Positions 15,826 to 46,368 of a DNA stretch of 64,000 nucleotides are shown here, piece after piece. Position numbers and translations under genes: made by a program. This DNA comes from a virus (Duplodnaviria; Caudoviricetes): positions 1-64,000 of IMG/VR virus record IMGVR_UViG_3300037454_000078; one strand, written 5' to 3'. Numbering within the stretch: the stretch's first letter is position 1; each line of letters starts with the position of its first letter. The notes under the pieces are model-generated. The model saw only the letters and a program-made list of their open reading frames with translations, was not told where the DNA came from and did no database searches.

Positions 15826-18800
15826 ATGGCAAACAACCCGACGATAGTAGCTGCAAGTCTTTCAGATGAAGCGCTGAAGACTTCAATCAAGAATCTTGTT
15901 TCCGAAGTAGATACTGCTGTCAATAATATGGCTAAAAACTTTAACGAAAAAGTTGGAAGCATGGAACAGGCGATAAAAAACTTTGCAAACATGAAGTTTG
16001 ACTCTGGTTCATCGTCTGGGAATGGAATAAAAAAATCTGTTGACGACCAAAAAAACCTTGAAGAGCAGACAAAGAAGACAACTCAGGCCGTCAAGGAGCA
16101 GGGTTATACTTATGACCAATTGGCAGAGTATATGAAAAACGCTGCGACACAAGCAGAAAAAAGGTTTGCCGTCACAGATATTCAGCAACTCAGAATGCGT
16201 CAGCACGAGATTGTTGCAGAGCTTGGCAAGCTTGAAGGAACTAAACTGTCTGGCGCGATTCGTGAGTTCAATGAACTTAAAGAAAAGTCCGAAGAAGTAA
16301 AGCGTCGGATTGCAGAACTTCAAAGTCTCATGTCACAGTTCAGAACAAACGAGCAAAAGAGTGCTGCGCGACAAGAAATCGAGAATCTTCGTACACAGTT
16401 AATGCTTCTTAATGGCGAAATGAGCAGGATTCAGCCGACTGGGAATGCAGAGCAGAGAATTAACTCACTTCGTCTTGAATATGAGCAGATAAACAGAAGA
16501 ATATCTCAAATGGGACAGGAATTGATTGACGCAGAGCAGAAGGAACTTGGATTGGCAAACGCTTCAAGACAAGAAACGAACGAACTTGACAAGCAACTTC
16601 AGAAGATAAAGGAACTGAACTCTGCTAAGGAAGCCAAAGCAATGTTTGTCGACATCGCGGCAATGCCTATTGACACTCTTGAGCAAGCGAGAGAAAAAAT
16701 TGAAGCCATTCGTGCGTTGATGCAGAAAGTAGAAAACACTCCTTTGATGGGTAAAGCCGACTTTGAAAAGCTTCGCAATCAGTTCTATGCGACAAACGAA
16801 GCGATAAGACAGTTCGGTCTCAAAGCTTCCGAATCAGCAGAAAAAGAAAACAGTGCAGCAAAACAGACGGTTAAAAGCGAAAAAGAACGCCAAGAAGAAA
16901 TACAAAAGACAGGACAAGCGGCTCAAGATACTGCCAAAAAGATAATCAGTTCGCTTCACAGTCAAGCGTCTGACGCCAAGAACACAAATCCTCTTGGAAT
17001 CATATCAGACGAGGTTGGACGTTCTGTAAACCAGATTAATCAGCTGAAGGAGTCCATAGAACAGATGAGCAGAGCCTATTGGGAAATGTCTTCTGCTGAA
17101 CGAGAGTCTCCAGTAGGAATTGCGTTGAAACACGACATTAAGATAGCAAGAGACGCAATAGCCGTTGTGGACGATTACAACAGAAGGTTACTGATGGGCG
17201 CTACGGACAACAACAGCAAAATCATATCAAATGAATCAACGCTGAAAGGTTTGCGTACCACGCTTAGTCAACTCACTGCTCAATACGAGAACTTGAAAGT
17301 TGCTGAAATCAATGCTGGCAAAGGAGACCAGATAATACAGCACTACCAAGACGTGAATCGTGCCGCGCAGATTCTACAAAGAACACTGAACCGACCGATT
17401 AATCTTCAGGCGGCATTGGCTGGCGATGAAAGGACATTGGACGACATTGCATACAAAATGCAAAGACTTCAAGCATATAGACAAGGAATCGACTTGACTA
17501 AGCCAGGAGCCGAGAACGAGATAAAGCAGGTTGACGACAAACTGAAAGAACTGCAAAGGGACGCTGACAAGTGGATTTCTAAGTCTAAAGAAATTGAAAA
17601 TCGCAACAACGCTCTTGGGCGCTCGTGGAACTACATGAAGAACCGTCTTGCGTTCTACTTTACAGTAGGAGCAAGCACAGCGTTCATAAAGAACTTGATT
17701 GAGATACGCTCCCAGTACGAGATGAACGAGCGTGCCCTTGGAATTCTCATCAACTCTGCAGAAAGAGGAACGCAAATATTCAAGGAGCTGTCAGACATGG
17801 CTCTCGTTTCCCCATACACGCTTATCGAACTGTCAAACGCAGCGAAACAGTTGACCGCATACGACATCGCAGCAAAGAACGTTGTCGACACGACAAGACG
17901 TCTTGCTGACATGGCTTCTGCCGTCGGTGTTCCAATGGAACGTCTGACATACGCACTTGGTCAGATTAAGGCTTACGGCTATCTGAACAGCCGAGATGCC
18001 CGTATGTTCGCAAACGCAGGTATCCCTCTTGTCCGCGAATTGTCAAAGTACTATACGGAACTTGAAGGTAAAATCGTTAGCGTGGGGGATGTGTACGACA
18101 GGATGAAGAAGAAGTCCATCGACTACAACGACGTAATGGCTGTCGTTACAAAGATGACAGACGAAGGAGGCAAGTTCTTTGACTTCCAAGCAAAGATGGC
18201 AGACACACTGAAAGTGCGTCTTGCCAACCTGACTCTTGCGTGGAACAACATGCTGAACGAAATAGGGGCATCAGAGCAGGGGGTTCTTACAACAGGAATA
18301 GGCATGCTGAAAGACTTCTTCTTGCACTGGAAGGACATAGAAGAAATCATCAGGAAAGTTGTATACGCGTTCGGATTGTTCAAAGCGGCTCAGATGATAA
18401 CTCTTGCATTTATGGGAGAGTTGAACACGGCAATGGGAATGCAGGTACTGCTTGGCACTAAACTTCAGACAAAGCTTGCTGCATTGACTTCTAGCACAAA
18501 AGCTTTGTCAGTTGGATTGTCTGCGTTCGGAATGGCATTTTGGGCTATTCTTGCAGACGCTTATGTTACATACAGCAGAAACGCTGAAGAAATAGAGAGA
18601 CTTAACAAAACCATTGCAGATGGAGCAAAAGAAGCGTCCGAAGCCCTTGACAAAATGCTGCATTCTTCAGAAATGGTAAGCTCAAGAATGTCTGCAATGC
18701 AAGGAAAACTCTCAGCAACAGACGCAGCAAAGACTTGGGAAGCGCTGCGTGAACAGATAGAGTTGTCCGCAATATCTTCAAAGAGCGTTGTTGCAGAAAT

Positions 18801-21800
18801 CGTTGAAGAGATACAAAAAAACGGTTTTGACAGAGGAATAGAAAAAGCTTTCGGTTTTGCAGAAAGCATTCAAAAAGTCACAAGCAAACTGAGCGACCTG
18901 AACGACAAGCTTCAAATAACTCAAGATGAAATGCTGGGAGGGCTGTTTGGTGAAGGTGTCGTTGAGGATATTGAGGATTACAACGAAAGGTTAAAATACG
19001 AAGCCGAACTTGCAGAATGGGCTGCAAACAAGAATAGCGGATTCTGGGAAAACGCTGTAATGGGACTTAAAGGTCTGTTCCATTCTGTAAAAGAAGACCT
19101 TGGAAGTTCAAAGGAAGAAGCAGAGAAAGAAATAAAGAAGTTTGCTGAAGACGCTGCACAGGTCATTAAAGACGAACTTGGAGAGGAGGGCTTGAAAGAC
19201 AAAATTCAAGTAAATGAAGCCATTGCTCGCGTTCTTCAGGGGTTCGAACAGATGTATCCTCAGATACGTGGGAAGGGGAAAGTCTTGTTTGAGACACTGT
19301 TCAACGAAACGATGGCAAAAGAGTTTGAGGGTTCTGTAGACAAACAAGCATATTATTATGAGAAATTCTTGGAGCAACTCAAGAAAGACCACGGAAGTGC
19401 TTTTAATGAAGTTACTGACGAAATACTCAAAGACACGCACAAGTGGTCTTCCTCGCAATTGGACGCCATACAGAAAACTGCAGATAAAGTCAGAAAAGAC
19501 CTTCCAGAAGCTTCGCAAGATGCAATTGACAAAATCCTAAGACAACTCAATTCTACAGAGTTCAAAGTTCGAATTGTCGCAGAGATGGCCACAACTTCCG
19601 TTGATGAAGTACAAAGACAATTCAACGAGAAATTCATTAAGAAGCCTGGGATTGAAGACCAGAAAGAAAGAGAGAAGGCTGAGGCTGAGGCTGCTCAGAA
19701 ATACGGTACTCTTAGGCGTAAATCAACAGAGAGCAATGTCGAGTACGAAAAGCGAATCAGCGACGAACGAAATAAACAGTTTGAGTTGTCTCAAAAGAAC
19801 GCAGATATTATATCTGCAAACAAAAGCAAACAAGACGAATACTCAAAGGCAGTAGTAAAAGACGCTGAAAACGCAAAGGCTGCAGCAGACGCGTGGCTGA
19901 AAGCTGCTGACGAAGTCGAAAAGGCTGGTGGATATGACTTCAGTACAAAGAGCGAGCGTTCTGCTGCGTCGAAAGCTCAGAAAGCTGCAGAGTCAGAGCT
20001 TCAGAAAGCGTTGAAGGAAGAGATAAAGCTTATTGACGAAGCGACGAACATGTATAAGAAGATGACGGATTCTGGAATCAACAGGACAACCGCACTCACT
20101 TACATCACCAACAAGTTCGGAGACTCAATCGAGCATATCAACAGTGTTCTTGGTAAGAACAATATACCAAAGTTCGACATAAGAAGGTTTGCTGGAACAG
20201 ATGACCCGCATAAGCTCCTTCAGATGCTTGAGGAGCAGAGAGCTGCTGCAAAACTGTCAAGGAACGTAAAGCCAGAAGAAATCAGCGAACTGCAGATAAA
20301 ATACGACAAGGTTGATGTTGATGCAAAAGTCTTTGATGCTACAAAGATTACAAAAGGCTTGAACAACGAGCTCGGACACCTGAAGGACGAGTACGAGCTT
20401 GCTGTGGAGCTTGACGCCAATCCAGAGTTCGGCAATATGTTCGCAGAAATGTTCGACCTCGACTTGGACACAATGCCAAAAACGGCCAAAGAGTACGCTG
20501 ACGCATACACCAAGCAACTTAACAAGTATTTCCAAGACCAAAAGACGGACATCAGGCTTCCGAATCTCCTGAACGTGACGAAGGACGACATGGAAGAGTT
20601 CAGGAAGCAGATGGAAGAAGGAAAACTTGAGATGGTATATTACGACCTTATAAAAGAAGCGTACAAAGAGACTCAGGCAGCCAGAAAGAAGGAGACGACG
20701 GACACAATCAACGAATGGAACAAGCTTGTTGAGAAATACGGTGAGTTCGAAGCCAAAATCACAAAGATAAACAACGACGCTGAAAAGGAACGGAAGATTG
20801 CGACCTTGATGAACGCTCCGAAAAGTCTTTTTGAGGCTATCGACTTAAAGCAAAGACAGCTTACGGCGAAAGCCGCGTTCGAGAGGTTCCAAGGCTCTTC
20901 TGAGTGGATTGTAGCCACTGGTGACTTGACTGGTATGACAAAGGAGGCAATAGGCAGTCTGATAGACAGCATAGAAGAGTACAAGAAGAAAGCCAAATAC
21001 CTAGACCCGAAGCAGATTAAGCAGATTAACAACGCCCTGAAAGCATTGCATAAGGAGCAGAGGAAAAACAACCCGTTCAAGTCTCTCTCAAACGCAATGG
21101 ATGAAGCAAAGGACAAGGCCGAAGTGTTCCAAGAAGAGATAGACAGTGAGCAGGAGAAGCTGAACAAACTCAGCTCGGAAATGATTCAAAGCGGTCAGGT
21201 GACAGAAGAGACAACAGGGAAAATAGGAACAATAATAGAAAGGATAAAAGAACTCAAAAAAGCACAAGAAGAAGTTCTGGAAGTAGACATAAACACCATA
21301 ATAGAAGGTCTTAAATCCGTCATGTCCACAGTAAAGCAGGCCACTGGACTGTTTACGGACATGTTTGGTGCTATCGGAGGAGATGAAGTCAAGAAAGATA
21401 TAGAGGATATGTTCTCTGTTGTAGACAATACTTTGAAAGGACTTGAGATTGGTGCGGCAATAGGCGGCAAATGGGGTGCTGTCATTGGCGGTATTGTCGG
21501 AATGCTTACGAGTGTCGTTTCAAAAATAGGAGACATCATCAGCGGAAACGAAGGCATTAACAGTTCGATTGAGGTCTCTGAAAGAAGAGTAAGGGGTCTT
21601 GAACTCGCGTATGTCGATTTGCAGCGCGCCGTAGACGATGCCTACGGCTCTGCCGTCATCGGTGCAAAGAAGGCGACTGTATACAACAAAGAACTGCAAC
21701 TTGCGGAACTGAAACGGCAGTTGGCGCTTGAACAGTCGAGAAAGAGCAAGAACATTGACCAAGACAGGATTGTAGAACTGCGGAAACAGATTCGTGAACT

Positions 21801-22686
21801 GGAATACGACATCATCGACTCGATAAAAGAAATAACGAACTCAATGCTTGGCATATCAAGCGTTGGAGACGCTGCGGAGGCGCTTGTGTCGAACATGATA
21901 GAGTCCTTCAGGAAAGGCGAGGACTATATGCTCAGTCTCAAGGATTCGTATGACGACATGATAGACAACATGATTATGAAGAGCATCGTCGCAAACGTAA
22001 TCGGCAAAAAAATAGATGAGTTGTTCGCGAAGGTCTCTGAGGCCGCTTCACAGAGAGCCAGTGCAGAAGAGGCAAGATACGAGGAAGCCGTGAAGAAATA
22101 CAGCGATGCCATGAGTCGAATCACGAACCCAGACTGGTGGGAATACTACAGTTTCGACCCTTATGGGGAAAACGTGGAAAGACAAGAACAGTCAAAGATT
22201 TCGTTTGAAGAGTGGCAGGACTTGTGGGAGAAGAGAATAGAGTATCTGAGAAAGCAGTACGAAGAAGCCGCAACGCCGACACCTGACGACGTGAAGGCGA
22301 TTGAAGAGATGCGTGATGGGTGGTACGGAGGAATAAAAGAAGAGTTCGAGGCGTGGATGAACGCATTCGGAATAAAATACGGGCAGGACGCTACGAACCA
22401 GCTCTCGGCATTGCAGCAAGGCATATCTGGAATCACAGAGACTCAGGCAGGCGCATTGGAAGCCTACTGGAATGCGAACACGCAGCAGCAGTACGTGCAT
22501 AGCGATTTGCTCACGCAGATAAGAGACGCCGTACAGTCGTTCGACATGGACTTACAGCTTGGCGTCTTCTCTCAGATGCTTCTGCAATTGCAGACGAACT
22601 ATACGGTCATGATGTCGATGCATTCCATGATGGAGGGATGGACTGTGGCTAGCGGACAAGGCATACGTGTCGAACTTATAAGTTAG
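15826..22686 (+). CDS. Tail tape measure protein, 2286 aa
   Basis: Long helical protein with a tape-measure domain (SAERGTQIFKEL..MALVSPYTLIELSNAAKQLTAY...LTYALGQIKAYGYLNSRDARMFANAGIP) and hydrophobic segments. Confidence 0.92.
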   Translation: MANNPTIVAASLSDEALKTSIKNLVSEVDTAVNNMAKNFNEKVGSMEQAIKNFANMKFDSGSSSGNGIKKSVDDQKNLEEQTKKTTQAVKEQGYTYDQLAEYMKNAATQAEKRFAVTDIQQLRMRQHEIVAELGKLEGTKLSGAIREFNELKEKSEEVKRRIAELQSLMSQFRTNEQKSAARQEIENLRTQLMLLNGEMSRIQPTGNAEQRINSLRLEYEQINRRISQMGQELIDAEQKELGLANASRQETNELDKQLQKIKELNSAKEAKAMFVDIAAMPIDTLEQAREKIEAIRALMQKVENTPLMGKADFEKLRNQFYATNEAIRQFGLKASESAEKENSAAKQTVKSEKERQEEIQKTGQAAQDTAKKIISSLHSQASDAKNTNPLGIISDEVGRSVNQINQLKESIEQMSRAYWEMSSAERESPVGIALKHDIKIARDAIAVVDDYNRRLLMGATDNNSKIISNESTLKGLRTTLSQLTAQYENLKVAEINAGKGDQIIQHYQDVNRAAQILQRTLNRPINLQAALAGDERTLDDIAYKMQRLQAYRQGIDLTKPGAENEIKQVDDKLKELQRDADKWISKSKEIENRNNALGRSWNYMKNRLAFYFTVGASTAFIKNLIEIRSQYEMNERALGILINSAERGTQIFKELSDMALVSPYTLIELSNAAKQLTAYDIAAKNVVDTTRRLADMASAVGVPMERLTYALGQIKAYGYLNSRDARMFANAGIPLVRELSKYYTELEGKIVSVGDVYDRMKKKSIDYNDVMAVVTKMTDEGGKFFDFQAKMADTLKVRLANLTLAWNNMLNEIGASEQGVLTTGIGMLKDFFLHWKDIEEIIRKVVYAFGLFKAAQMITLAFMGELNTAMGMQVLLGTKLQTKLAALTSSTKALSVGLSAFGMAFWAILADAYVTYSRNAEEIERLNKTIADGAKEASEALDKMLHSSEMVSSRMSAMQGKLSATDAAKTWEALREQIELSAISSKSVVAEIVEEIQKNGFDRGIEKAFGFAESIQKVTSKLSDLNDKLQITQDEMLGGLFGEGVVEDIEDYNERLKYEAELAEWAANKNSGFWENAVMGLKGLFHSVKEDLGSSKEEAEKEIKKFAEDAAQVIKDELGEEGLKDKIQVNEAIARVLQGFEQMYPQIRGKGKVLFETLFNETMAKEFEGSVDKQAYYYEKFLEQLKKDHGSAFNEVTDEILKDTHKWSSSQLDAIQKTADKVRKDLPEASQDAIDKILRQLNSTEFKVRIVAEMATTSVDEVQRQFNEKFIKKPGIEDQKEREKAEAEAAQKYGTLRRKSTESNVEYEKRISDERNKQFELSQKNADIISANKSKQDEYSKAVVKDAENAKAAADAWLKAADEVEKAGGYDFSTKSERSAASKAQKAAESELQKALKEEIKLIDEATNMYKKMTDSGINRTTALTYITNKFGDSIEHINSVLGKNNIPKFDIRRFAGTDDPHKLLQMLEEQRAAAKLSRNVKPEEISELQIKYDKVDVDAKVFDATKITKGLNNELGHLKDEYELAVELDANPEFGNMFAEMFDLDLDTMPKTAKEYADAYTKQLNKYFQDQKTDIRLPNLLNVTKDDMEEFRKQMEEGKLEMVYYDLIKEAYKETQAARKKETTDTINEWNKLVEKYGEFEAKITKINNDAEKERKIATLMNAPKSLFEAIDLKQRQLTAKAAFERFQGSSEWIVATGDLTGMTKEAIGSLIDSIEEYKKKAKYLDPKQIKQINNALKALHKEQRKNNPFKSLSNAMDEAKDKAEVFQEEIDSEQEKLNKLSSEMIQSGQVTEETTGKIGTIIERIKELKKAQEEVLEVDINTIIEGLKSVMSTVKQATGLFTDMFGAIGGDEVKKDIEDMFSVVDNTLKGLEIGAAIGGKWGAVIGGIVGMLTSVVSKIGDIISGNEGINSSIEVSERRVRGLELAYVDLQRAVDDAYGSAVIGAKKATVYNKELQLAELKRQLALEQSRKSKNIDQDRIVELRKQIRELEYDIIDSIKEITNSMLGISSVGDAAEALVSNMIESFRKGEDYMLSLKDSYDDMIDNMIMKSIVANVIGKKIDELFAKVSEAASQRASAEEARYEEAVKKYSDAMSRITNPDWWEYYSFDPYGENVERQEQSKISFEEWQDLWEKRIEYLRKQYEEAATPTPDDVKAIEEMRDGWYGGIKEEFEAWMNAFGIKYGQDATNQLSALQQGISGITETQAGALEAYWNANTQQQYVHSDLLTQIRDAVQSFDMDLQLGVFSQMLLQLQTNYTVMMSMHSMMEGWTVASGQGIRVELIS

Positions 22687-23772: not shown

Positions 23773-24135
23773 TCAGAAGATTCTCTTCCACCAAGGCTTC
23801 GCTGGCTTCGACAGCTCCGCAGCAAGTCTGTCCGCCTCGCTCTTAAACTCGCCAATCCTGTCGTTGAGGACGAGCACTTGGTCTTTGTACGACTCAATCT
23901 GACCGCGAAGCTGCGCGTTGGTCTTCTCCAGAACGTCGACCTGCTTCAGCAAGGAGTCGCACTCCGCAATCTTCCCTTCGTAGAGATGGTCTCCCTCCAA
24001 GTCGAGCGACTTGTACTTCCTGACCTGCTCCTGCAAGACGGAGATTTGTCCTCTTATGCCAGCGTTCTGTTTGCGCAGGAACTTGACTTCCTCTTCAACA
24101 CTCTCAAAATGGTTTTCTTTCTTTACCTTTTTCAT
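23773..24135 (-). CDS. Coiled-coil protein with C-terminal KPWWKRIF
   Basis: 120 aa heptad-rich ORF, convergent with the tail operon. Confidence 0.6.
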   Translation of the reverse strand: MKKVKKENHFESVEEEVKFLRKQNAGIRGQISVLQEQVRKYKSLDLEGDHLYEGKIAECDSLLKQVDVLEKTNAQLRGQIESYKDQVLVLNDRIGEFKSEADRLAAELSKPAKPWWKRIF

Positions 24136-24163
24136 AAGATTGCAATTTTAAGTTTATGATATT

Positions 24164-24571
24164 TTAAAAGTCTGGTTTGTTGTAAGACTCCAAGTCTGGA
24201 GTACCGCTTGAGTGCAGTTGGGAGTCCTTCTGCATTCTCGCTTCCTGTCTCTGGTACAGCCTTGGAACGCTGAACACGTTCAGTGTCTGTCCGATGACGC
24301 TGTATCCGTCTATGGTCTCTCCGTTCTCTATGGCGTATGGCAGCACTTCCCCCTTAACTTCCACGACCATACCGTTCGAGAAGTGGTTGTTGACGTAGTT
24401 GACCAGTCCCTGCTTGTAGATGACTTTCCATGAGAGATACTTGTCTTCCACGCGAGTCCCGTCTGATTTTCTGTAGCCTTTTCTGTACTCCGACAGGAAG
24501 ACGAAGCATCCGCCGCCGTTGGGGATGAACTTGACTGACTCGATTATGCCTATGATGTTTACACTTGCCAT
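24164..24571 (-). CDS. SSB-like OB-fold protein
   Basis: N-terminal VNIIGII, SEYRKGYRKSDG.RVED, GMVVEVKGEV, acidic C-terminal PDF. Confidence 0.6.
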   Translation of the reverse strand: MASVNIIGIIESVKFIPNGGGCFVFLSEYRKGYRKSDGTRVEDKYLSWKVIYKQGLVNYVNNHFSNGMVVEVKGEVLPYAIENGETIDGYSVIGQTLNVFSVPRLYQRQEARMQKDSQLHSSGTPDLESYNKPDF

Positions 24572-24792
24572 TTCTGTATTCTAATATCCTCTTTACGGGC
24601 TTCTTCTTCAAAAAGACGCTCGTATTCCTCCAATATCGGTTCTATATATTCCCATTCAATCATACATCTTCTCGTCTTTGCCGCTTTTCAGCCTTTCTGA
24701 CGGCTTCCAACGCTCGTTGCGGTATAGTTGTCCACCTCGTGAATTTTCGCCGCCCAGAGAGTCTGTTTTCGGCTTGTCCTCGTTTCTGGTTG

Positions 24793-24824
24793 CAAATATA
24801 GCTCATAATTTGGAATATTCCAAG
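24793..24824 (-). promoter_or_regulatory. Promoter CTTG-N20-TATATTTG with perfect palindrome TTGGAATATTCCAA (24810-24823)
   Basis: Read directly from the sequence. Confidence 0.75.
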
Positions 24825-24838
24825 TTTTTAAATGATTT

Positions 24839-25495
24839 TTAACCAAAAAAGGCCTTGAGAGCTCCAGACACGCTCTCCCCCTTGGCTTCCTTCATCCTCT
24901 TGTACTCCTCGAACGTAACCACTCCCTTGTTCCCCTCTTCGATGCGCCTTACGTTCTCCGTGCGCTCTATTTCCGCGTAGTAGTCTCCGCGTTCAGCCAT
25001 GAACTTGTTCAGTGACTCTGTTATGACGAGGGCATACGAGTCTCCGCCATAGAAGCGCCCGTACTTTCCAGCCATGAAGCGAGAAACGAACAGCAGTATT
25101 TCCTCAACCTTGAGCGTCTTGTACTGTGTGGATATTGTCTGAGCCAACATGTACACCTGTTCTTTCGAGAACTTGTCGTTCGTCACGTTGAGGAATACAA
25201 GCATCGACTGCAGGACGCCGAAGAGCCATGTGGCAGACGAATTCTTCCCGTATGTGACATCTATTCTAACGAGCGTCGGCGATTCGCGCTTGAACACGTC
25301 TATCGGATTCTGCACGATTGAGTTCATGTTGGCATACGAGAATCTGTTGCAGAACCCTCTTATGTCCCCGTACTCATTCCTTATCTCCGCCACCCATGTC
25401 GGCTGGCTCTCCGATGTTGCCAAAGAGCCGTTCCATGAACGAGTCTGCTTCGGCAATAGTTCTCCCAACTTTTTCGGTTGCTGTTTCTCTTCCAT
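24839..25495 (-). CDS. Replication-associated protein (helicase loader/inhibitor-like, Bacteroidota phage type)
   Basis: Overlaps the initiator gene; LKVEEILLFVSRFMAGKYGRFYG motif recalls proteins that follow initiators in Bacteroidales phages. Confidence 0.5.
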   Translation of the reverse strand: MEEKQQPKKLGELLPKQTRSWNGSLATSESQPTWVAEIRNEYGDIRGFCNRFSYANMNSIVQNPIDVFKRESPTLVRIDVTYGKNSSATWLFGVLQSMLVFLNVTNDKFSKEQVYMLAQTISTQYKTLKVEEILLFVSRFMAGKYGRFYGGDSYALVITESLNKFMAERGDYYAEIERTENVRRIEEGNKGVVTFEEYKRMKEAKGESVSGALKAFFG

Positions 25496-26201
25496 AGTTG
25501 TTGTTGTTATTTTTATTCTTAGACCATGTCGTGCAGGCTGCTTTCCAGCTCTTCATAGGATTACGGCCTACTTTCCATCCGTTGCTCTCATAATGTGCAA
25601 AGAAGGCTTCCGCATCGAACGTATAGCCCTTCTCGTTGATGTAAGCCTGTATTTCGTCAACGGTAGGCTTAACAAATCGTTTCTCTTTCTTTATAGAAGA
25701 CACGTTAGTGTCTGATATTTCTTTAATATTATCTTTCTTTTCCTTTCTTCTAGATAGTTGTTCATTTTGTTGTTCATTTTGTTGTTCATCATCAACAGTG
25801 CCACTCATACTTAAATCATTGATTTCCAACGTGTTCTGTTGTTCATTTTGTTGTTCAATTACTAAGTATTTCTTGATGGTTATAATATTAATCAGCTTAC
25901 TCGTTGTCTGTTCGATGATTCCAGACGAAAGAAGTTCTGACAAGAACTTGCGTACAGTATTCCTGCTCCACTGCCACTTTTCTGCGAGGTTTGCTTCTGA
26001 TATAGCAATCTCGTATGGTTTCAGCGTAACCTTGATGCCTCTCACAAAAAATTCGCGCTCCTTATATGCAGCTTGGAAACAAAGGTCTATAAACGCCTGA
26101 GCACGAGTAAACCTCTCTGACGAGAAGAAGTCCTCGTCATAAAGCCCTCTATCCAACTTTATAAAACCCTTATTCAACTTGTAGCAGTCTTTAAAAGCCA
26201 A
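25374..26201 (-). CDS. Phage replication initiator (replisome organizer type), TTG start
   Basis: N-terminal GFIKLDR...winged-helix segment (SEANLAEKWQWSRNTVRKFLSEL), internal EQQNEQQ repeats (iteron-like), C-terminal FVKPTVDEI...FFAHYESNGWKVG..MKSWKAA domain. Confidence 0.8.
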   Translation of the reverse strand: MAFKDCYKLNKGFIKLDRGLYDEDFFSSERFTRAQAFIDLCFQAAYKEREFFVRGIKVTLKPYEIAISEANLAEKWQWSRNTVRKFLSELLSSGIIEQTTSKLINIITIKKYLVIEQQNEQQNTLEINDLSMSGTVDDEQQNEQQNEQLSRRKEKKDNIKEISDTNVSSIKKEKRFVKPTVDEIQAYINEKGYTFDAEAFFAHYESNGWKVGRNPMKSWKAACTTWSKNKNNNNNYGRETATEKVGRTIAEADSFMERLFGNIGEPADMGGGDKE

Positions 26202-26315
26202 ACAAGCGGTTCTACTCTTCAGCTGCTACTCCGAATTTCGAACCGCCTGTTGTGGCAAGTTGTTATAACATTTATGTCTCCATCGCTTTATCACCTATAG
26301 TAGCAGACGGCGTTC
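26197..26315 (-). ncRNA. Structured leader/antisense RNA switch upstream of the initiator gene
   Basis: 8-bp closing stem (26223-26230/26299-26306) encloses a 17-nt segment (26240-26256) complementary to 26197-26212, which spans the TTG start. Confidence 0.65.
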
Positions 26316-26343
26316 AAGCGTGCGATTTCAATGAATCACGGTG

Positions 26344-26375
26344 CAAAGATAGCAATTATCCGCTCATATTCCAAA
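26344..26375 (-). promoter_or_regulatory. Promoter TTTG-N20-TATCTTTG with an operator half-site
   Basis: Minus strand reads TTTGGAATATGAGCG...TATCTTTG. Confidence 0.75.
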
Positions 26376-26395
26376 CATTTTATGCATTTTTATGA

Positions 26396-26737
26396 TTATT
26401 CGTCATTCAAAGCGCGTAGTTCACTTCCCAACATCAAAGCACTAATCTTTGAGTAGATGCCAACTCTTCTAAGAGTCCTGACTCTCTCGAAGTCGCCGTC
26501 CTCGTACGCACGTCTGTACGACTTTCCGAGCACTTTAGGAACGTCTTGTCTGCTGATGCGCTCGTCGTCGCATGCTCGGGAGAGGAGCTCTACCTCCGAC
26601 TCCGTGGCAGAACACTCCCTCCTGTAGTTCATGCGTATCATGTCGTACGTGAAGCTTCCAAGACCGAACTTCCTTGCAATCGGCATCAATCTCAGCAGAT
26701 AGCGTCGGCAGATGCGCTGAAGCGTGTCATTCCTCAT
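26396..26737 (-). CDS. Hypothetical protein
   Basis: 113 aa, co-oriented and coupled ORF. Confidence 0.6.
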   Translation of the reverse strand: MRNDTLQRICRRYLLRLMPIARKFGLGSFTYDMIRMNYRRECSATESEVELLSRACDDERISRQDVPKVLGKSYRRAYEDGDFERVRTLRRVGIYSKISALMLGSELRALNDE

Positions 26738-27017
26738 CTTCTGCTGTCTCGAAGCTTACGTTGTACTTCTCCTTCAGATACCAATAAGGAATGGCATCAA
26801 GTACCAAAGCAACCTTGTACTCAGGCTTGAAGTGCTCCCTGACATTGGAAGGCAAGTCTTTCAGCGTATCCTCGTTCACGCACTCCTTCACGAGCGACAC
26901 GTTCAGCGGATTCAGCGGTACGCACATCTTCAGCCTGCTACCTGTCGCAAACACAATCTCAGCGTCGTCTGGCAATGCAGCGAACACTTCGTTCTCCAAA
27001 AATTCCTTCTTTGTCAT
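26727..27017 (-). CDS. Hypothetical protein
   Basis: Likely start MTKKEFLENE at 27017; coupled ORF. Confidence 0.55.
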   Translation of the reverse strand: MTKKEFLENEVFAALPDDAEIVFATGSRLKMCVPLNPLNVSLVKECVNEDTLKDLPSNVREHFKPEYKVALVLDAIPYWYLKEKYNVSFETAEDEE

Positions 27018-27037
27018 GATTCTCTGTTTTTTATTGG

Positions 27038-27661
27038 TTAATATCCTTTGCCATGTTTGTTCGGGCGGGACTCGTTGTAGGCCATCTTGTGCTCTATGTG
27101 CCACTCGAGGTCTATTTTGTGGAAATCAGCGAAATCAAAGCACCATGCAAGAGAAGCACCAAGAAGGCAGAAAATGTCGTCCGCCGACGTATATTTGTCA
27201 ATACGGATTATAATCCTCGCCAATCCGTAGCATTGCTCGTTGATAGAGTCCTTACCCCAAATGTTAGCCCAATCGTCGCTTGTAGATGCTTCCTCAAGGA
27301 CAAGCGGCTCTATATGCCGTGTTCCCAAGAAATCGCATATACGGATAACGACGTCGGCCAATTCGTCCTCCAACGTGTCCTTGATGTGTTCAACAAAGCA
27401 CTTGTTGACGTATTCGGCGTATTCGGCATCGCTACCGATACGGATTTCCTCTAACGCCTTAAATGCACCAACATCGGCGCGGCGGTTCTTCCTATCCGCC
27501 TCCACCATCTCGCCGATTTCACTGATAACAAGCATCATCCAGTGCTCGTCAGAACGCTCCTCGTCGTGGAAGCCGTGCCCGCAGGCCGTTTTGTATGCAC
27601 GGCTGATAAACTCGTTGATTTTTTCTTTTGATACCATAATTCTCTTGTTTTCGTTAATCAT
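27038..27661 (-). CDS. MazG-like nucleotide pyrophosphohydrolase
   Basis: MLVISEIGEMVEADR and EDELADVVIRICD motifs, plus a C-terminal IDLEWHIEHKMAYNESR..KHGK.Y segment. Confidence 0.8.
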   Translation of the reverse strand: MINENKRIMVSKEKINEFISRAYKTACGHGFHDEERSDEHWMMLVISEIGEMVEADRKNRRADVGAFKALEEIRIGSDAEYAEYVNKCFVEHIKDTLEDELADVVIRICDFLGTRHIEPLVLEEASTSDDWANIWGKDSINEQCYGLARIIIRIDKYTSADDIFCLLGASLAWCFDFADFHKIDLEWHIEHKMAYNESRPNKHGKGY

Positions 27662-27706
27662 TGATTATATCCGTAACTCTCAAATAATTTAACGATTTTT
27701 ATAAAA

Positions 27707-28078
27707 CTAAAAAGGCAATTGACTATCGTCAGTATTCGCATTCTTCTGCTGCGGAGTATTCTGAGGTTGGGCGCTTGCACCCTGCTGCGGCTGCTGCACT
27801 CCACCAATCGTCGAGCAATAGTAACAGCTTGCCGTGGTGAACCAACGTCCCTGATACTCCCTCGACGTCACGTTGAACTTGACCAACACCTCGTGGCCGA
27901 CCACGACGGCGTTCTTCATCTTTTCGAACTTGTCGCTGCCCATGACCTCAAGGCATAGCTTCTGCTCGTACTGTCCGTCCATCCAGCTAACTACGAACTG
28001 GTGCTTCTCCCAATCTCCCCTGCTGCTCGTACCACTCTGCACTGGCAGCACTTCAATAATCTTTGCGTTTAACTCCAT
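27707..28078 (-). CDS. DUF3127-type SSB-like protein
   Basis: MELNAKIIEVLP..SGTS..G.W.K..FV...V.V.FNVTSREYQGRWFT, Q/P-rich linker, C-terminal LPF. Confidence 0.75.
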   Translation of the reverse strand: MELNAKIIEVLPVQSGTSSRGDWEKHQFVVSWMDGQYEQKLCLEVMGSDKFEKMKNAVVVGHEVLVKFNVTSREYQGRWFTTASCYYCSTIGGVQQPQQGASAQPQNTPQQKNANTDDSQLPF

Positions 28079-28106
28079 CTGTTATAATATATTTAATCTT
28101 TAATAA

Positions 28107-28229
28107 CTATCTCAATGCCAATATCACAAGCATTGCACAAAGCACGATGCACACAATAAACAAGCTGTGAGCAACCGACTCTAATGCGCACACGACGCGC
28201 TCTCTAAATTCATCACTCGGCATAATCAT
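28107..28229 (-). CDS. Small membrane peptide (40 aa)
   Basis: Manually translated MIMPSDEFRERVVCALESVAHSLFIVCIVLCAMLVILALR; coupled to the upstream ORF. Confidence 0.45.
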   Translation of the reverse strand: MIMPSDEFRERVVCALESVAHSLFIVCIVLCAMLVILALR

Positions 28230-28579
28230 CCACTACTGTCACAGTGCCAGTACAGGCTCAAGGACTTGCAGCACGAGTGGTGGTCTGTCTTAGCCCAACC
28301 GTCGCTGTGACTCTCAACTTCAAATCCATACTTCTCTCTCTGCTCCCAGAACGCCTTCATAATCAGACGAGGAAGCATGACGTCCAGCCACATGTGGGTA
28401 CTACTCCAAAAAGGAGGATACCAGCCGTTCTCGTAGCCAAGGTCGCCAATCGGGGCAAGCTTGCGCAGGTCACTAAGACCGAACAGACCAACCTTCCTCG
28501 TCAGTTCCCATTTCCGTTCCCTTGTCAAATACATAATATCCCTCTGTTTAACGTAAGTAAATAATGAAATTCGCTGCAA
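28226..28579 (-). CDS. Hypothetical protein (Trp-rich); true start probably internal (MYLTRERKW)
   Basis: First ORF after the promoter at 28577-28609. Confidence 0.55.
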   Translation of the reverse strand: MQRISLFTYVKQRDIMYLTRERKWELTRKVGLFGLSDLRKLAPIGDLGYENGWYPPFWSSTHMWLDVMLPRLIMKAFWEQREKYGFEVESHSDGWAKTDHHSCCKSLSLYWHCDSSG

Positions 28580-28609
28580 ATATAGACATAGTTCTTGAAA
28601 TATTCCAAA
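28577..28609 (-). promoter_or_regulatory. Promoter TTTG-N21-TATATTTG with palindrome TTGAAATATTCCAA (28595-28608)
   Basis: Read directly from the sequence. Confidence 0.75.
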
Positions 28610-29678
28610 TTTATAACACTATTTAATAGTATTAACTATTTTTTAGTAATACTATAACATAGTATACATTATATTAATGTATATACATATACACACACGC
28701 GCGTAAAATCAGCTCTTTTCTTGAAATCCATGGCAGAAAACAGAAGAAAACTGAACCCTAAAATAAAAGAAACGCGTTTTAAGGCGTCCTGAGACGTTTT
28801 TTCGACCTCAGACGATAAATTGTACTCAAAAACTATTTGAAGCCGCCAGAGAGCTCGAAAACAGCGTTTTTGACAATTCTGCATCACAACACACACTCTT
28901 TATCTCTGGGATTTTTATTTTTTCGTTTTTCTTTTTTTCTTTTTTGAGGAAAGGACTGTTTGCACCATATCTTTTCGCTTTGCGGTTCACCCCGTCCCCG
29001 TCTATTTGTTTTCGTCTGTTTTCGTACCTTTTAAGCCGTATTTTATCTGCTATCTTTTTAGGGTTAAAAATACGTTTTAAATACGTTCATTTATTATCAT
29101 TATCACTTCTTTTGCAAGTCTATAACAAAAACGCCAAAACGCCAACAAACTAAAAAACGTATCATTTTGGAAAAACAATGTACCAAAATTAAACATATCT
29201 AAATATTCACGCCTATCTATCTATTATCTTTTTATCTATTCTATTAACCAACAACTAACTAATAATCTATACTAACATATTATATTAATCTTATTAACTC
29301 TATATTAATTCTATACTATACTATACTATACTATTCTATAACTTTCGCGTGCGTACATTATTATAATAAAATAAAGTGTACTACTAATATAGTACACAGA
29401 TACAGTTTTTACGCTATAAAAAAAATATTAACATTACTGTAAATAATTCAGAAAAAATAAATATTTACACTAAAAAACTCTATTTTTTAGGAAAAACTCT
29501 CTATTTATTAGTGTTTCAGAAAATAAAAATTTTCTATAAATTACTAATATTAATTTACAATATACATTTTTTAAGATTTATATCAATATAAAATTAACAT
29601 ATTAAATCTTTCAAAACAGCCTTAAATAAAGGAATTTTGTGTAAAATATTATTTTATTTGTTAAAAACTTATTCTTAC
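28610..29678. other. AT-rich non-coding divergence zone; candidate genome terminus/packaging site and/or replication origin
   Basis: No credible ORF; long T tracts (28910-28945), CACCCCGTCCCC (28988-28999), several AT-rich inverted repeats; transcription diverges here and composition changes abruptly. Confidence 0.5.
29311..29340. repeat. (CTATA)6 tandem repeat, fifth copy CTATT
   Basis: ctatactatactatactatactattctata. Confidence 0.9.
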
Positions 29679-29709
29679 TTTGATATATGGAAAATTAACT
29701 GTACCTTTG
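29679..29709 (+). promoter_or_regulatory. First early promoter TTTG-N19-TACCTTTG
   Basis: Full Bacteroidota housekeeping consensus upstream of the ORF at 29749; lacks the palindromic operator. Confidence 0.75.
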
Positions 29710-29748
29710 CACCAAAATTAAGATAATAACAATTTAAAACATTAAGTT

Positions 29749-30033
29749 ATGAACACGAAGAATAAAAGCAAATATCAATATTTAGGTGAAAACCTTTATA
29801 ATGATACAGATATTTTTTGTTTGGTACATAAAGCCACAAGAATAGTATTTTTAGAATTTATTGCAACAGATTTTATTGATTATTGCATAAACAATAATAT
29901 TCGTTTTGTGGATTATTTGCAAAAAAGAAAAGAGTATATTTGTAAAAGCCGCAACTATTCGCCAGAGTTATTTGGTGTATCTTATAAAAATTATGGTTAC
30001 GAAACATATAATTTTAATTTAATGTGTGAATAA
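29749..30033 (+). CDS. Hypothetical early protein (very AT-rich)
   Basis: 94 aa, AAAACATTAAGTT-ATG leader, downstream of the promoter. Confidence 0.6.
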   Translation: MNTKNKSKYQYLGENLYNDTDIFCLVHKATRIVFLEFIATDFIDYCINNNIRFVDYLQKRKEYICKSRNYSPELFGVSYKNYGYETYNFNLMCE

Positions 30034-40833: not shown

Positions 40834-41665
40834 GGTATTCTTATACAGCCGCATCAGTACAGACCAGCAGTCTCTTGCACAACAGGAGAGGACTGTATAC
40901 GAGTGGCTTGGCCGCAACAACATGTCAGTCACTGACGTTGTGAGCGACGAGGGAATCAGCGGTGGCGTGTCGTATAAGGAACGCAAGCTTGGAAAGGAGC
41001 TGCTTCCGATTATGATTGCTGGCGACATGCTCATCGTATCAGAGATTTCACGTCTTGGACGTTCGATGTTCGACCTCAGTAAGCTTATCAACGAGGAGTT
41101 GAAGCCGCGTAAGATTCGTCTTGTTGTGGTAAGTATGGGACTGGATTTGCGATGCGACCATATCACTGCGCTGGACGAACTGATTCTTCAGAACTTCTCG
41201 TTTGCCGCCCAGTTGGAGAAGGAGCTTATAAGCAGCCGCACGCGCTCTGCGCTTGAAGTGAAGAAGAAACAGGGCATTAAGATGGGCGCTGCGTCTGACA
41301 TCTATAAATCAAACAAATCAAAGAAGAGTAAAGAACAGATAGGTAAAGAGATTATGCTTAGAGGCAGGATGAAGAACAAGAGGCACATGGAGTCGAAGGA
41401 AGCGCAGATGTTCCTCAAAGCACTGAAGAAAGCGTTCCCAGAGTACTGCGAGGACGAAGACTTCACGAAGTGGGATTGGGAATTGGGTCTGCGTCTTCGT
41501 TGCGGAAAACTTGAGAAGCTGGTCGAAGTTATGAAAGACATTCACGACGTAGACCAGACAGTCTTTGCCAAGTGGCAATTTGACAGTCCTTTGCTTGCCC
41601 GCCGTCTGCGTGCCCACATGCAGCAGTTCAAGAAGAGTGTAAAGAATTATTCGTCTAACAACTAA
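40826..41665 (+). CDS. Serine recombinase (resolvase/invertase family)
   Basis: Catalytic motif YSRISTDQQS, then DEGISGG and AGDMLIVSEISRLGRS, and helix E (ELISSRTRSAL). Confidence 0.92.
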   Translation: MCRVFLYSRISTDQQSLAQQERTVYEWLGRNNMSVTDVVSDEGISGGVSYKERKLGKELLPIMIAGDMLIVSEISRLGRSMFDLSKLINEELKPRKIRLVVVSMGLDLRCDHITALDELILQNFSFAAQLEKELISSRTRSALEVKKKQGIKMGAASDIYKSNKSKKSKEQIGKEIMLRGRMKNKRHMESKEAQMFLKALKKAFPEYCEDEDFTKWDWELGLRLRCGKLEKLVEVMKDIHDVDQTVFAKWQFDSPLLARRLRAHMQQFKKSVKNYSSNN

Positions 41666-43311: not shown

Positions 43312-43384
43312 CGCGGGATGGAGTTGTTGGAAGCTCGCAATGTTCATATCATTGAGGTCGGCGATTCGAGTTCGCCTCCCGCTA
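43312..43384 (+). tRNA. tRNA with CAT anticodon (Met, fMet or Ile2); no encoded CCA
   Basis: Acceptor CGCGGGA/TCCCGCT with unpaired position 1:72, anticodon arm CAATG-TTCATAT-CATTG, T-arm GGCGA-TTCGAGT-TCGCC. Confidence 0.85.
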
Positions 43385-43464
43385 CATCTGATTGTCTTTC
43401 ATGATGAAAATGTTTTAAATTGAATCTTAGGCAAGAGCTCGTGAGAGTCAGTAGCCTATTCTTT

Positions 43465-43545
43465 GGGGATGTAGCTCAGTTGGTTAGAGCGCACAGAACG
43501 GCCAGTCTTCTGTGGTGGTCGCGTGTTCAAGTCACGTCATCCCTT
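43465..43545 (+). tRNA. tRNA-like gene with an enlarged (23-nt) anticodon arm
   Basis: Canonical acceptor GGGGATG/CATCCCT, D-arm GCTC-AGTTGGTTA-GAGC and T-arm GCGTG-TTCAAGT-CACGT, but the anticodon arm is CACAGAA-CGGCCAGTC-TTCTGTG. Confidence 0.75.
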
Positions 43546-43547
43546 CT

Positions 43548-44247: not shown

Positions 44248-44279
44248 TTTGGAATATATCAAATATCGTCGTATATTTG
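44248..44279 (+). promoter_or_regulatory. Promoter TTTG-N20-TATATTTG with palindrome TTGGAATATATCAA (44249-44262)
   Basis: Read directly from the sequence. Confidence 0.75.
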
Positions 44280-44293
44280 CAGTGCTTTTAGGA

Positions 44294-44462
44294 AGTGGGA
44301 ACTCTTAGGAGCAGACATTTGGAAGAACGTTGAGATAACGGACATACGTTTATACATAATCGTCGGATTTCGGAGAGTTCCCACTGTTGCGAAAGCAACA
44401 TCCGACAATGCGACGAACCTATTCAGAGCTACCTGTCGGATTTCCGATGGGTAGTTTTGTTT
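44294..44462 (+). ncRNA. Structured leader/attenuator RNA
   Basis: 12-bp closing stem (44294-44305/44374-44385), GAAA-capped hairpin (44385-44400), ATCCGACA (44400-44407) able to pair with either GTCGGAT copy (44362, 44435), and a terminator. Confidence 0.7.
44429..44462 (+). terminator. Intrinsic terminator within the leader
   Basis: CTACCTGTCGG-ATTT-CCGATGGGTAG followed by TTTTGTTT, upstream of the ORF. Confidence 0.7.
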
Positions 44463-44474
44463 AGGTGAACGTAG

Positions 44475-45227
44475 ATGCAGATACGACGAAAGATAATGAA
44501 CGAATGCAAGGGACAGCCAAAGCTCCAGAAAGCTCTGGCAATTGCAGTCTTGCTCAAGCAACGTCTCGGACGCTCGTCTATGATGCGTAACTATTCAATA
44601 AACAAGATTCATACACTGACAAAGATTTCCGCTACGACGATAAACAAATACATGCCGATTCTCATAGAGAACGGATGGGTGTCGTTCTGCGGAAAGAACA
44701 ACCAGCACTTAATCGTAAGCAAGCTGTGTTCTCACACTGATGGTCGAAATATCTGCGTGGACAAGTTCTGCTTCGAATCGTTTGCTGACGTATATCGCTC
44801 ACTGCGTGCTTTCTTGGCACTCATCATACAATCACACAAGGACTTTATCAAACGCACGATTCAGATTGCAACCGACCCAAAACGAGGGCAAAATTTCAAG
44901 GGTGCAAGGAAGTTAGTGAAACGTCTCGTAAGACAAGGTCTTCTTCGCTCGATTTATGATGCGTACAAAGAGTATGGACTGGGCTATAAGAGAATAGCTG
45001 AAGAGACTGGAAACTGTATTCGCACAGCACAGCGAATCATGCAGTATGCAGTCAGAAAGAGATGGACTAAGAAGCAGAGCCATTACGAACGTGTGTATGC
45101 ACCAAATTATTTTTCTGACGACTATACTTATCATAAAGATAAGTTTATGTATATTGTACACGCTAATACTTACGAACTCAGCAAAGCAGTCTCAAGCAGC
45201 ATCTCGCATGGTAATAATAGTTGGTAA
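44475..45227 (+). CDS. Basic DNA-binding protein with two HTH-like segments (start 44475 or 44496)
   Basis: SINKIHTLTKISATTINKYMPIL and GYKRIAEETGNCIRTAQRIM segments; lies behind the attenuator. Confidence 0.65.
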   Translation: MQIRRKIMNECKGQPKLQKALAIAVLLKQRLGRSSMMRNYSINKIHTLTKISATTINKYMPILIENGWVSFCGKNNQHLIVSKLCSHTDGRNICVDKFCFESFADVYRSLRAFLALIIQSHKDFIKRTIQIATDPKRGQNFKGARKLVKRLVRQGLLRSIYDAYKEYGLGYKRIAEETGNCIRTAQRIMQYAVRKRWTKKQSHYERVYAPNYFSDDYTYHKDKFMYIVHANTYELSKAVSSSISHGNNSW

Positions 45228-45245: not shown

Positions 45246-45713
45246 ATGACGTTTAATAAAGTTGAAATAGGAATACCAACCGTTGAGCAAATAAAAGAGT
45301 GTGCTGATAAGTTTGGGTACAAGTTTAATCCAGTTGACTGCTATGCCTACTTTAATAAAAAGAAATGGAAAACTGAAAAAGGCCGAGATTATTGGTCTCT
45401 CGAATTTGCATGCACTGTATACAATGGAGTTTATGTTTATAAAAAACAAAAGAAAGTTGACGTTTCCAATTTCAACACTTTATCTTATGAAGGCTCTCCA
45501 TACAAAGAGCAGTTGTTGGATAAACGTTGGAGGCTCTTTAGAGAGTTTGCCATTGAAGCAAGAGGCGGAGTTTGTGAAAATTGTGGTTCAAAGAAAAACT
45601 TGGTAATACATCATTTAATATACAAGGACGGTTACAACGCATGGGACTACAGCGTAAGAGACGTTGTGTGCTTGTGTAATAATTGTCACAAGAAAATACA
45701 TAACATTAAATAA
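45246..45713 (+). CDS. HNH endonuclease with an N-terminal initiator-like domain
   Basis: CENCG...LVIHHLIY...VCLCNNCHKKIH; the N-terminus IPTVEQI...GYKFNP...YAYF..KKWK resembles the C-terminal domain of the initiator at 25374-26201. Confidence 0.8.
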   Translation: MTFNKVEIGIPTVEQIKECADKFGYKFNPVDCYAYFNKKKWKTEKGRDYWSLEFACTVYNGVYVYKKQKKVDVSNFNTLSYEGSPYKEQLLDKRWRLFREFAIEARGGVCENCGSKKNLVIHHLIYKDGYNAWDYSVRDVVCLCNNCHKKIHNIK

Positions 45714-45720
45714 TAACAAT

Positions 45721-46368
45721 ATGAGAAGTGAAGTTTACAACATTGACTGTATGGAGTACATGAAAACTCTACCAGACAAGTATTTCGACCTTTGCATAGC
45801 AGACCCTCCATTTGGGATAAGTTATGCAAGAGGTAAGAATGGTTGGGGTGTATGCGACAACCGTCCAGACCTCAAAGATGTGAAGTGGGATAAAGAAATT
45901 CCACAAAAAGAGTTCTTTGATGAACTGCTTAGAGTAAGCGACAAAGTTATCATTTGGGGTGGCAATTACTTTACGCATTTATTGCCAGTATCTAAGTGCT
46001 GGATTGTTTGGGATAAGTGTAATGGCACTACCAACAAAAGCGTGTTTGCTGATGCCGAACTTGCTTGGACTAACATGACAAAGGTGGTTAAGATGTTTCA
46101 TTTGCGTCAGATGGGTTTTATTAGCGATACGAAAGACGGAAAGCGAATCCATCCTACGCAGAAACCCACAGAGTTGTATGAGTGGTTGGTTAAGAACTAT
46201 GCGAAGGACGGAGATACAATTTTCGACCCGATGATGGGTTCACAATCATCACGTATCGCTGCTCATCGACTTGGCTTTGATTATGTAGGCTGCGAACTTG
46301 ATAGGGAATAATTCGACAAAGGAAATGAAAGATTTAAAGCGGAAACTGCACAATTAAGATTATTCTAA
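45721..46368 (+). pseudogene. Amino (m6A/m4C) DNA methyltransferase, beta class, with an in-frame TAA at 46309-46311 removing the last 18 codons
   Basis: DPPF motif IV, HPTQKP, FDPMMGSQSS motif I. The frame continues ELDRE*FDKGNERFKAETAQLRLF to a TAA at 46366-46368, 1 nt before the next gene. Confidence 0.8.

Follow-up and report, generated by a model that had tools for sequence, protein, structure and literature searches.

A predicted three-site leader RNA before the DnaD-like initiator gene of a cattle-gut phage of Bacteroidota

The P4 CI RNA and the P1/P7 C4 RNAs are matured by RNase P into discrete RNAs of about 70-80 nt. In P4, seqA lies upstream and seqC downstream of CI, before the replication genes (PMC4825925), and the C4 RNAs form three stem-loops whose loops pair with sites on their own transcript that occlude the ribosome-binding site, the pairing loops a' and b' being complementary to a1/b1 and a2/b2, and differences of 4 nt set the P1 and P7 RNAs apart in specificity (PMC5320573). 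For IncI-alpha, IncB and IncL/M plasmids, to judge from the references given in PMC10724649, a pseudoknot in the rep leader is associated with an antisense Inc RNA. Here we describe a leader RNA encoded on the minus strand of a 64,000-nucleotide stretch of phage DNA (the window), which covers the opening 64 kb of an IMG/VR virus record (IMGVR_UViG_3300037454_000078) that is complete at 81.4 kb; the leader precedes a gene for a DnaD-like helicase loader or replication initiator, and its closest functional parallels would be, by analogy, the seqA/B/C sites of P4 CI, P1 C4 and the IncI-alpha rep pseudoknot. In the plasmid systems the competitor is reportedly a countertranscript and the pseudoknot is said to activate translation, results attributed to Asano & Mizobuchi 1998 and Athanasopoulos et al. 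1999.

Full-text searches of the literature yielded no description of such leaders in Bacteroides phages. Bacteroidota mRNAs lack Shine-Dalgarno sequences, and how RNAs block translation there is an open question (PMC7366714). Post-transcriptional control in this phylum is poorly understood, and a leader loop that matches the bases adjoining a start codon provides a directly testable model, for which compensating variants are already present in natural relatives. A preliminary description of the locus had proposed a structured, promoter-proximal leader RNA with complementary sites on the same strand before the replication initiator, and this outline is borne out, one of the sites adjoining the start codon. 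The analogy that it drew with P4 CI and P1/P7 C4 holds for the outline logic but not for the particulars, that is, the pair, the start, the second target, the closing stem and the T-loop.

Leader organization and complementary sites

The leader lies in a 218-nt gap that separates two minus-strand genes, a 113-aa open reading frame (ORF) on its 5' side (26396-26737) and the initiator gene (25374-26177; 267 aa, with PHROG profile matches). On balance, we read ~26340-26178 (minus strand, as are all leader features below) as a 5' untranslated leader that acts as a cis translational switch on the mRNA of the DnaD-like initiator, and that probably throttles synthesis of this protein. This reading is built on three sites. 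Site A, CUGCUACU (26299-26306), is the centre of the 13-nt loop of a hairpin, P1; site B, the 'anti' copy AGUAGCAG (26223-26230), constitutes the whole 8-nt apical loop of a second hairpin, P2; and site C, CUGCUAC (26181-26187), covers positions -10 to -4 of the UUG at 26177 and repeats the motif of site A. Written as minus-strand DNA, CTGCTACT (26306-26299) and AGTAGCAG (26230-26223) complement each other at all 8 nt. The preliminary description had seen this complementarity, but took it for the stem closing an 84-nt element; when that 8-bp stem is imposed, the leader folds at -33.7 kcal/mol, ~15 kcal/mol short of its minimum free energy (MFE) of -48.4 kcal/mol, and the stem cannot be nested with P2. 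Because the free fold places both octamers in hairpin loops, where they are accessible, we regard them as loop partners rather than as a closing stem. The predicted unpaired probabilities are 0.95 for the octaloop, 0.86 for site A and 0.71 for site C, and the duplex energy of site B is -12.6 kcal/mol with site A and -11.8 kcal/mol with site C; on these model values, the octaloop could pair with either.

P1 and P2 are present in both the MFE and the centroid folds, and a small 5' hairpin, GUGAUU...AAUCGC (26322-26339), appears in the MFE fold only, its sequence being kept in the related contig L083 with no covariation. P1 (26284-26320) has an outer stem CGCUU/AAGCG and an inner stem CGCC/GGUG, separated by internal loops of 3 nt, beneath its 13-nt loop. 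The GAACGCC that had been suggested as a second antisense target is there in letters, but it reads CAAGCCG in L083 and forms part of the inner stem of P1. P2 (26197-26256; -29.3 kcal/mol) consists of a 16-bp lower stem, an internal loop, a 5-bp upper stem (UUCGG/CUGAA) and the 8-nt apical loop, with GGTTCGAAA sitting in the stem and internal loop. The arms of the lower stem, GCCACAACAGGCGGTTC (26256-26240) and GAACCGCTTGTTTGGC (26212-26197), lie 27 nt apart on one transcript and form 16 pairs, of which one is G-U, a single C being bulged. These are the same letters that were previously described as an antisense copy and its target: the pairing of 16 out of 17 nt is present at the positions given, but the 17-mer does not lie in a loop, being the 5' arm of P2, and the supposed target is the 3' arm, the two together making an ordinary cis hairpin in both folds. 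Directly after P2 comes a U-run (26193-26196), a weak terminator-like tail that reads UUUU in the window leader and UUUC in the two related contigs, L083 and L084; the terminator scan made no call on this hairpin and its 3-4 nt U-run owing to the scan's loop limit of 8 nt.

The three-site arrangement is uncommon. Of the five copies of CTGCTAC/GTAGCAG in the 64 kb window, three fall inside 126 bp. We scored the arrangement by the longest k-mer, within the 16 nt that precede the start, for which the leader contains a reverse complement as well as a direct copy; the window leader reaches k = 7 (p = 0.0007, dinucleotide shuffles), which 0.6% of random genomic positions equal. The same sequence might nonetheless be an ordinary structured 5' untranslated region in which P2 is a partial terminator (attenuator) or a stabilizing hairpin and the complementarities have no regulatory role. 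The great stability of P2 and the U residues after it would suit such an element, the complement of the heptamer taken alone has p = 0.06, and the sites of the type-1 leaders (those of the window, L083 and L084) never vary, which is neutral on pairing. Such an element would not account for the rarity of the three-site coincidence, its recurrence with five other motif sets before orthologs, the joint change of the three copies on a shared scaffold or the constancy of site A within a variable P1, and we consider it improbable.

Set beside the described systems, sites A, B and C would behave like seqA, seqB and seqC. As in P4 CI, a same-strand RNA derived from the leader would lie before replication genes, and the 'anti' stands between two complementary copies. 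The window leader differs from CI in that its host belongs to the Bacteroidota and that of P4 is an enterobacterium, in that its downstream site abuts the start codon and a termination action is not known for it, in contacts of only 7-8 nt, and in matching no Rfam model. A cmscan search of 24000-28500 on both strands against Rfam 15, with permissive filters, gave no match at E <= 10, either to C4, the comparison suggested by the preliminary description, or to any other family, and the leader is therefore not a member of the C4 family. With C4 it would share hairpin-loop pairing, by an RNA borne in a leader, to sites of the same transcript that occlude a ribosome-binding site. In C4 a few changed loop letters set the specificity between related phages (PMC5320573), a feature paralleled by the UGUCGGA, UACUGGC and GACCAACA variants described below; C4, however, controls icd/ant through two pairing loops among three stem-loops, whereas the leader described here forms two main hairpins with one pairing octaloop and stands before an initiator. 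The TTCGAA that had been likened to a T-loop is present, but ARAGORN finds no tRNA-like element at the leader, placing tRNAs only at 43312-43546, and the likeness carries no weight because CI and C4 have no equivalent of a T-loop (PMC5499578). As far as the references in PMC10724649 describe the IncI-alpha type, a loop in the leader of an initiator mRNA likewise pairs next to the ribosome-binding site, and a competitor for that loop sets expression. In the window, by contrast, the competitor would be a second copy on the same RNA, with no -7 box on the opposite strand, and there is no conserved leader peptide.

The leader would be transcribed from a promoter of the sigma-ABfr type, the -33/-7 consensus of which has been described for Bacteroides (PMC7366714). 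A TTTG at -33 (26372-26375) lies 20 nt before the -7 box TATCTTTG (26344-26351), which L083 and the type-2, type-3 and type-4 leaders of related phages also have. A search of the two window strands (128 kb in all) finds just 8 matches to the full pattern TTTG-N18-22-TAnnTTTG, and within 26050-26480 TATCTTTG is the sole copy of TAnnTTTG on either strand. Transcription would thus start a few nt past the -7 box, at ~26340-26336, and a leader RNA is predicted to be made. Two further candidates were dropped. An antisense (countertranscript) promoter opposite the leader was rejected for lack of a plus-strand TAnnTTTG in 26050-26480 (canonical promoter type only), and a leader peptide was rejected on the ground that the AUG-led mini-frames have just 2-3 codons, the one at 26284 becoming ATA in L084.

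Two Logan contigs, L083 and L084, carry the same leader, site C included, before initiator proteins that are 73-76% identical. The -33 box is precisely where homology with L083 sets in; the genes farther upstream are unrelated. The leader core (26281-26178) is 95-99% identical in the three phages, as against 62-73% for the third positions of the first 110 codons past the leader (binomial P <= 4e-10), indicating purifying selection on the nucleotides of the non-coding leader as tight as that on codon positions 1 and 2. The leader is a real, selected, structured element. P1 is its variable part (78% identity), with 9 of 41 positions differing in L083, where CUGCUACU is nevertheless unchanged; the changes comprise one compensatory pair (C-G to A-U), two wobble-compatible ones and others that fall in internal loops or loop flanks. 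P2 differs between the three sequences only by A26210G of L084, where a G-U pair replaces A-U. Standard pairs fill 100 of 100 cells of the 38 pairs, with one compensatory and three one-sided compatible changes, a covariation that has no statistical power because there are only three near-identical sequences. No type-1 leader beyond L083 and L084 was obtained in scans of phages, viral contigs, metagenomes and genome contigs: a blastn 'distant' search against the phages collection gave no match, and 0 matches were returned by viral-contig scans with a 25-mer of the P2 top and with the P2 scaffold with a free loop, by a metagenome scan with a 22-mer and by genome-contig scans with two patterns. 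The three-motif pattern had 17 matches in viral contigs, all of them unrelated coding repeats rich in Ala, Thr and Ser, and these were discarded.

The start codon of the initiator

Nearly all of the closest database homologs begin with MNKGF, MSKGY or MAKGF aligned to the TTG at 26177, the codon aligned to it is ATG in the type-2, type-3 and type-4 phages, and the PHROG profiles, from their positions 2-3 onward, align from residue 8-12 of the longer ORF. The most likely start codon in this homolog alignment is the UUG at 26175-26177 (minus strand; MNKGFIKLDR...), and the real initiator start is very probably this codon and not the TTG at 26201; the resulting 267-aa form is also that of the gene-caller record, the window's own contig included. 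Start contexts of Bacteroidota mRNAs without Shine-Dalgarno sequences carry upstream A residues, typically at -3, -6 and -11 (PMC7366714), and UUG 26177 has A at -3, at -11 and at -13 to -15.

The preliminary description had instead placed the start at TTG 26201, the first in-frame start candidate of the long ORF, and had proposed that the 17-mer is an antisense copy that masks it. All three type-1 sequences have this codon in frame and open, and it is indeed buried inside the stem of P2, with an unpaired probability of 0.04. The 8-residue extension that it would add is found in no homolog, however, and the orthologs that start with ATG align to 26177; the profile matches begin only at residue 8-12; UUG 26201 has no A at -3, -6 or -11, the positions typical of the phylum (PMC7366714); and the paired letters are simply the arms of a hairpin, with no loop that meets a target. 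We therefore consider masking of a start at 26201 highly improbable. A real start outside the paired region had been named in advance as telling against the masking proposal, and such a start is very probably what the locus has, as TTG 26177 lies 20 nt past the region of 16 pairs.

Leaders with other motifs before orthologous genes

The same relation between sites recurs in leaders of different sequence. In L082 and L085-L089, orthologs of 64-67% identity have the same neighbour genes on both sides and a leader of unrelated sequence; the L082 group has the same promoter, with CGUGUUAUUGU in a hairpin loop as the exact complement of ACAAUAACACG, which ends 3 nt before the AUG. The leaders of L187, L190, L276-L278 and L108 carry (A/U)UCCGACA in a hairpin loop and two downstream copies of UGUCGGA, the second at the start codon. 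L188 keeps this type-3 scaffold and its spacing with GCCAGUA and two copies of UACUGGC, and L279 has UGUUGGUC with two copies of GACCAACA, so that across L187, L188 and L279 the scaffold and spacing stay constant and the three motif copies vary in concert. In the distant group of L239 and L242, a large hairpin loop contains GGUCGUGU, and ACACGACC occurs twice, once at the start and once near the 5' end. In each of these other-motif leaders the 'anti' copy lies in a hairpin loop, 44-76 nt upstream of the start. L187, L188, L190, L239, L278 and L279 were retrieved after the hypothesis had been fixed, and all fit the three-site logic. At least five other motif sets thus precede orthologs, and the combined three-site statistic over six motif-independent leaders is p ~5e-11. 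As the letters differ and it is the relation of complementarity and its position that stay conserved, the pattern bears the signature of base pairing. Covariation is also seen in the type-3 scaffold hairpins, where 6 of 13 RNAalifold pairs are compensatory.

Type-2 and type-3 leaders additionally share a hairpin with the conserved loop GG-UAGCU-CC (L082 2866-2960; L187 1403-1470; L188 154-220; L279 485-550), the stems of which covary (GGUG/CACC, ACUCA/UGAGU, GAUUA/UAAUC and GAUGG/CCAUC). Part of this hairpin may escape transcription, since the 5' arm of its outer stem begins at the -7 box (TTTG-CAAAG...). Scans of viral contigs with the type-3 tail pattern returned the contig of L187 and one chance match, and with the type-3 scaffold pattern L187, L190, one new near-identical locus (L276) and chance matches. 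Rfam searches on the leaders of five related loci gave only noise matches, all outside the leaders. In the gene map of P0122 a 239-nt gap precedes the initiator gene. The most distant homologs, from metagenome and viral protein scans, have no long leader, as their gene abuts the upstream ORF, and were left out of the comparison.

Separately, the window contains a second promoter and leader module at 44248-44500 (plus strand), before an unannotated 250-aa ORF (44475-45227). Its fold is exceptionally stable (-79.5 kcal/mol, z = -6.1), and it carries GTCGGAT, ATCCGACA and TGTCGGAT, the last in a terminator-like hairpin that is followed by TTTTGTTT. Its 8-mer pair is that of the type-3 replication leaders in L190 and L277.

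The comparison among relatives also bears on whether the element works as DNA. Origins and iterons are often found in or next to initiator genes. An example is repL/oriL of P1 (PMC9948254). The copies of CTGCTAC/GTAGCAG and the palindromes could accordingly be sites for a protein, as in an operator, iterons or an origin, with the hairpins incidental; two direct copies and one inverted copy would make plausible binding sites, and the A/U-rich linker between P1 and P2 (26257-26283), which contains the palindrome TGTTATAACA, has one variable site (26281) in three phages even though it is unpaired. Against this, the motifs of the relatives are wholly different although the N-terminal winged-helix regions of their initiators are alike and have the segment WSRNTVRKF in common, the distance between the direct copies of type-3 leaders is not constant (12-18 nt), and the inverted copy is always found at the loop of a hairpin that covaries. 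In addition, it is at ~29 kb and not at 26.2 kb that the genome has its GC-skew minimum and its very A/T-rich divergence region. A role at the level of DNA is, in our view, quite improbable, and it is retained at all because the invariance of the unpaired linker is unexplained; conservation of the linker could reflect protein binding or a DNA-level role.

Modes of action and genome setting

For the cis switch that we favour, the following sequence of events may be envisaged. The leader would be transcribed from its own Bacteroidota-type promoter; P1 would display site A, and P2, followed by a short U-run, would be capped by the octaloop. The octaloop could then form an 8-bp kissing contact with the P1 loop or a 7-bp pseudoknot with CUGCUAC at -10 to -4 of the UUG. 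In hosts without Shine-Dalgarno pairing, ribosomes load on an open A-rich stretch, and pairing at -10 to -4 should for this reason block initiation at a weak UUG. The copy in P1 would act as a competing decoy or as a second site, and the net effect would be a gate that limits the amount of initiator. The leader thereby suggests a way in which phages of the gut and rumen may control initiator dose, and its motif-swappable design makes it a possible regulatory part for the engineering of Bacteroides.

Several points weigh against the cis switch. The reach in cis to site C, from the tip of a 21-bp hairpin over a 9-nt spacer, is geometrically tight. Base pairing leaves the near-invariance of the unpaired linker (26283-26257) unexplained. 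The covariation of the type-1 leaders is matched by 272 of 500 shuffles, as expected of three near-identical sequences, the complement of the heptamer in the loop is not significant by itself, the three-site statistic was framed post hoc, after the first cases, and the type-3 variants share the ancestry of their scaffold and are not fully independent. The sole RNA run found has three contigs of 151-225 nt at a depth of ~2 (24306-24530, 26361-26511 and 26583-26733), none of them over the leader and all uninformative on expression, ends and strand.

The same parts could also serve an RNA that acts mainly in trans, in the manner of C4 or CI. Most transcripts would end at P2 and the U-run, or be processed, releasing a putative stable RNA of ~145 nt. 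Its octaloop would bind read-through mRNAs, whether from the phage itself or from one that co-infects the cell, at site C and possibly also at site A, resulting in gene-dosage feedback on replication or in immunity of replication among related phages. In all leader types the structured domain is followed by a U-run, and the motifs of L187, L188 and L279 differ sharply on close scaffolds, as would be expected of a specificity determinant (PMC5320573); these two features make a released leader a serious sub-alternative. The two downstream targets of the type-3 leaders flank an A/U-rich pad, which would suit two RNAs bound in trans, and P4 CI likewise lies between seqA and seqC before replication genes (PMC4825925). 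On the other side, the U-run has only 4 nt in the window and 3 nt in L083 and L084 and was not called by the terminator scan, no match to C4, IsrK or any other Rfam family was found, a contact of 7-8 nt is short without a chaperone, and the sole RNA run gives no ends for the leader. The search of the 81 kb genome turned up no tyrosine integrase, and lysogeny of the phage is only putative. We regard action mainly in trans as rather unlikely.

Taken together with the cis switch, the leaders of the relatives allow a wider and more tentative proposal, which we put forward as possible but doubtful: that in phages of Bacteroidota, where Shine-Dalgarno sequences are lacking, modular same-strand three-site leaders, each made up of a promoter, a scaffold hairpin with an anti-start-site sequence as its loop and two copies that match it, are widespread and meter initiators, and that the freely exchangeable motif of 7-11 nt is a specificity code for immunity or incompatibility in trans. 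If so, the released leader RNA of one phage would shut down the replication of a co-infecting relative with the same code, an RNA-based system analogous to the copy-number control of plasmids with no countertranscript, and the element would, if its RNA acts in trans, determine which related phages are able to replicate within one cell.

The initiator product itself matches the PHROG families phrog_2514 (1.3e-15), phrog_186 (1.4e-10), phrog_678 (5e-05) and phrog_428 (4e-05), and also phrog_7498, which place it with the phage DnaD-like helicase loaders and O-like replication initiation proteins; its Pfam match to HTH_69 is sub-threshold only. The linker between its domains (25740-25880, minus strand) is a repeat rich in Gln, Asn and Glu (EQQNEQQN...), variable in length and common to nearly all homologs. 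Its N- and C-terminal domains recombine freely, many database matches covering only the C-terminal 110 residues, and in other proteins the matching C-terminal part is joined to the N-domains PF19808 and PF13730. A DUF6633 gene lies 3' of the initiator, the same arrangement being found in relatives (type 2), and in the type-3 relatives L187 and L188 this place is taken by DnaB; no gene for a DnaB-family helicase was found in the whole 81 kb genome of the window phage. Farther upstream of the 113-aa ORF are a gene for an SSB-like DUF3127 protein and a pyrophosphatase gene.

A bovine-gut metatranscriptome holds short contigs identical to window sequence; the phage is a cattle-gut phage, and its host phylum is Bacteroidota. 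A Resolvase-domain (serine recombinase) match (E = 3.7e-27) lies at 40835-41275 (plus strand) inside a 283-aa open frame. With one small serine recombinase present and no tyrosine integrase found, a lysogenic lifestyle of the phage, and hence a role in immunity, is no more than possible. The region of the GC-skew minimum (28500-30000) is very A/T-rich (22-29% G+C), non-coding and a point of transcription divergence, with full sigma-ABfr-type promoter patterns starting at 28609 (minus strand) and 29679 (plus strand), and it is a better candidate for an origin or genome end than the leader at 26.2 kb. On the plus strand, a 2286-aa ORF (15826-22686) matches tail tape-measure families (phrog_9959, 4e-60) and stops just short of the convergence with the minus-strand replication block (~23.76 kb). 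Farther along the same strand are genes for tRNA-Met (CAT) and tRNA-Trp (CCA) (43312-43546); the region 45246-47128 has a gene for an HNH endonuclease and, after it, two for DNA methyltransferases (phrog_67).

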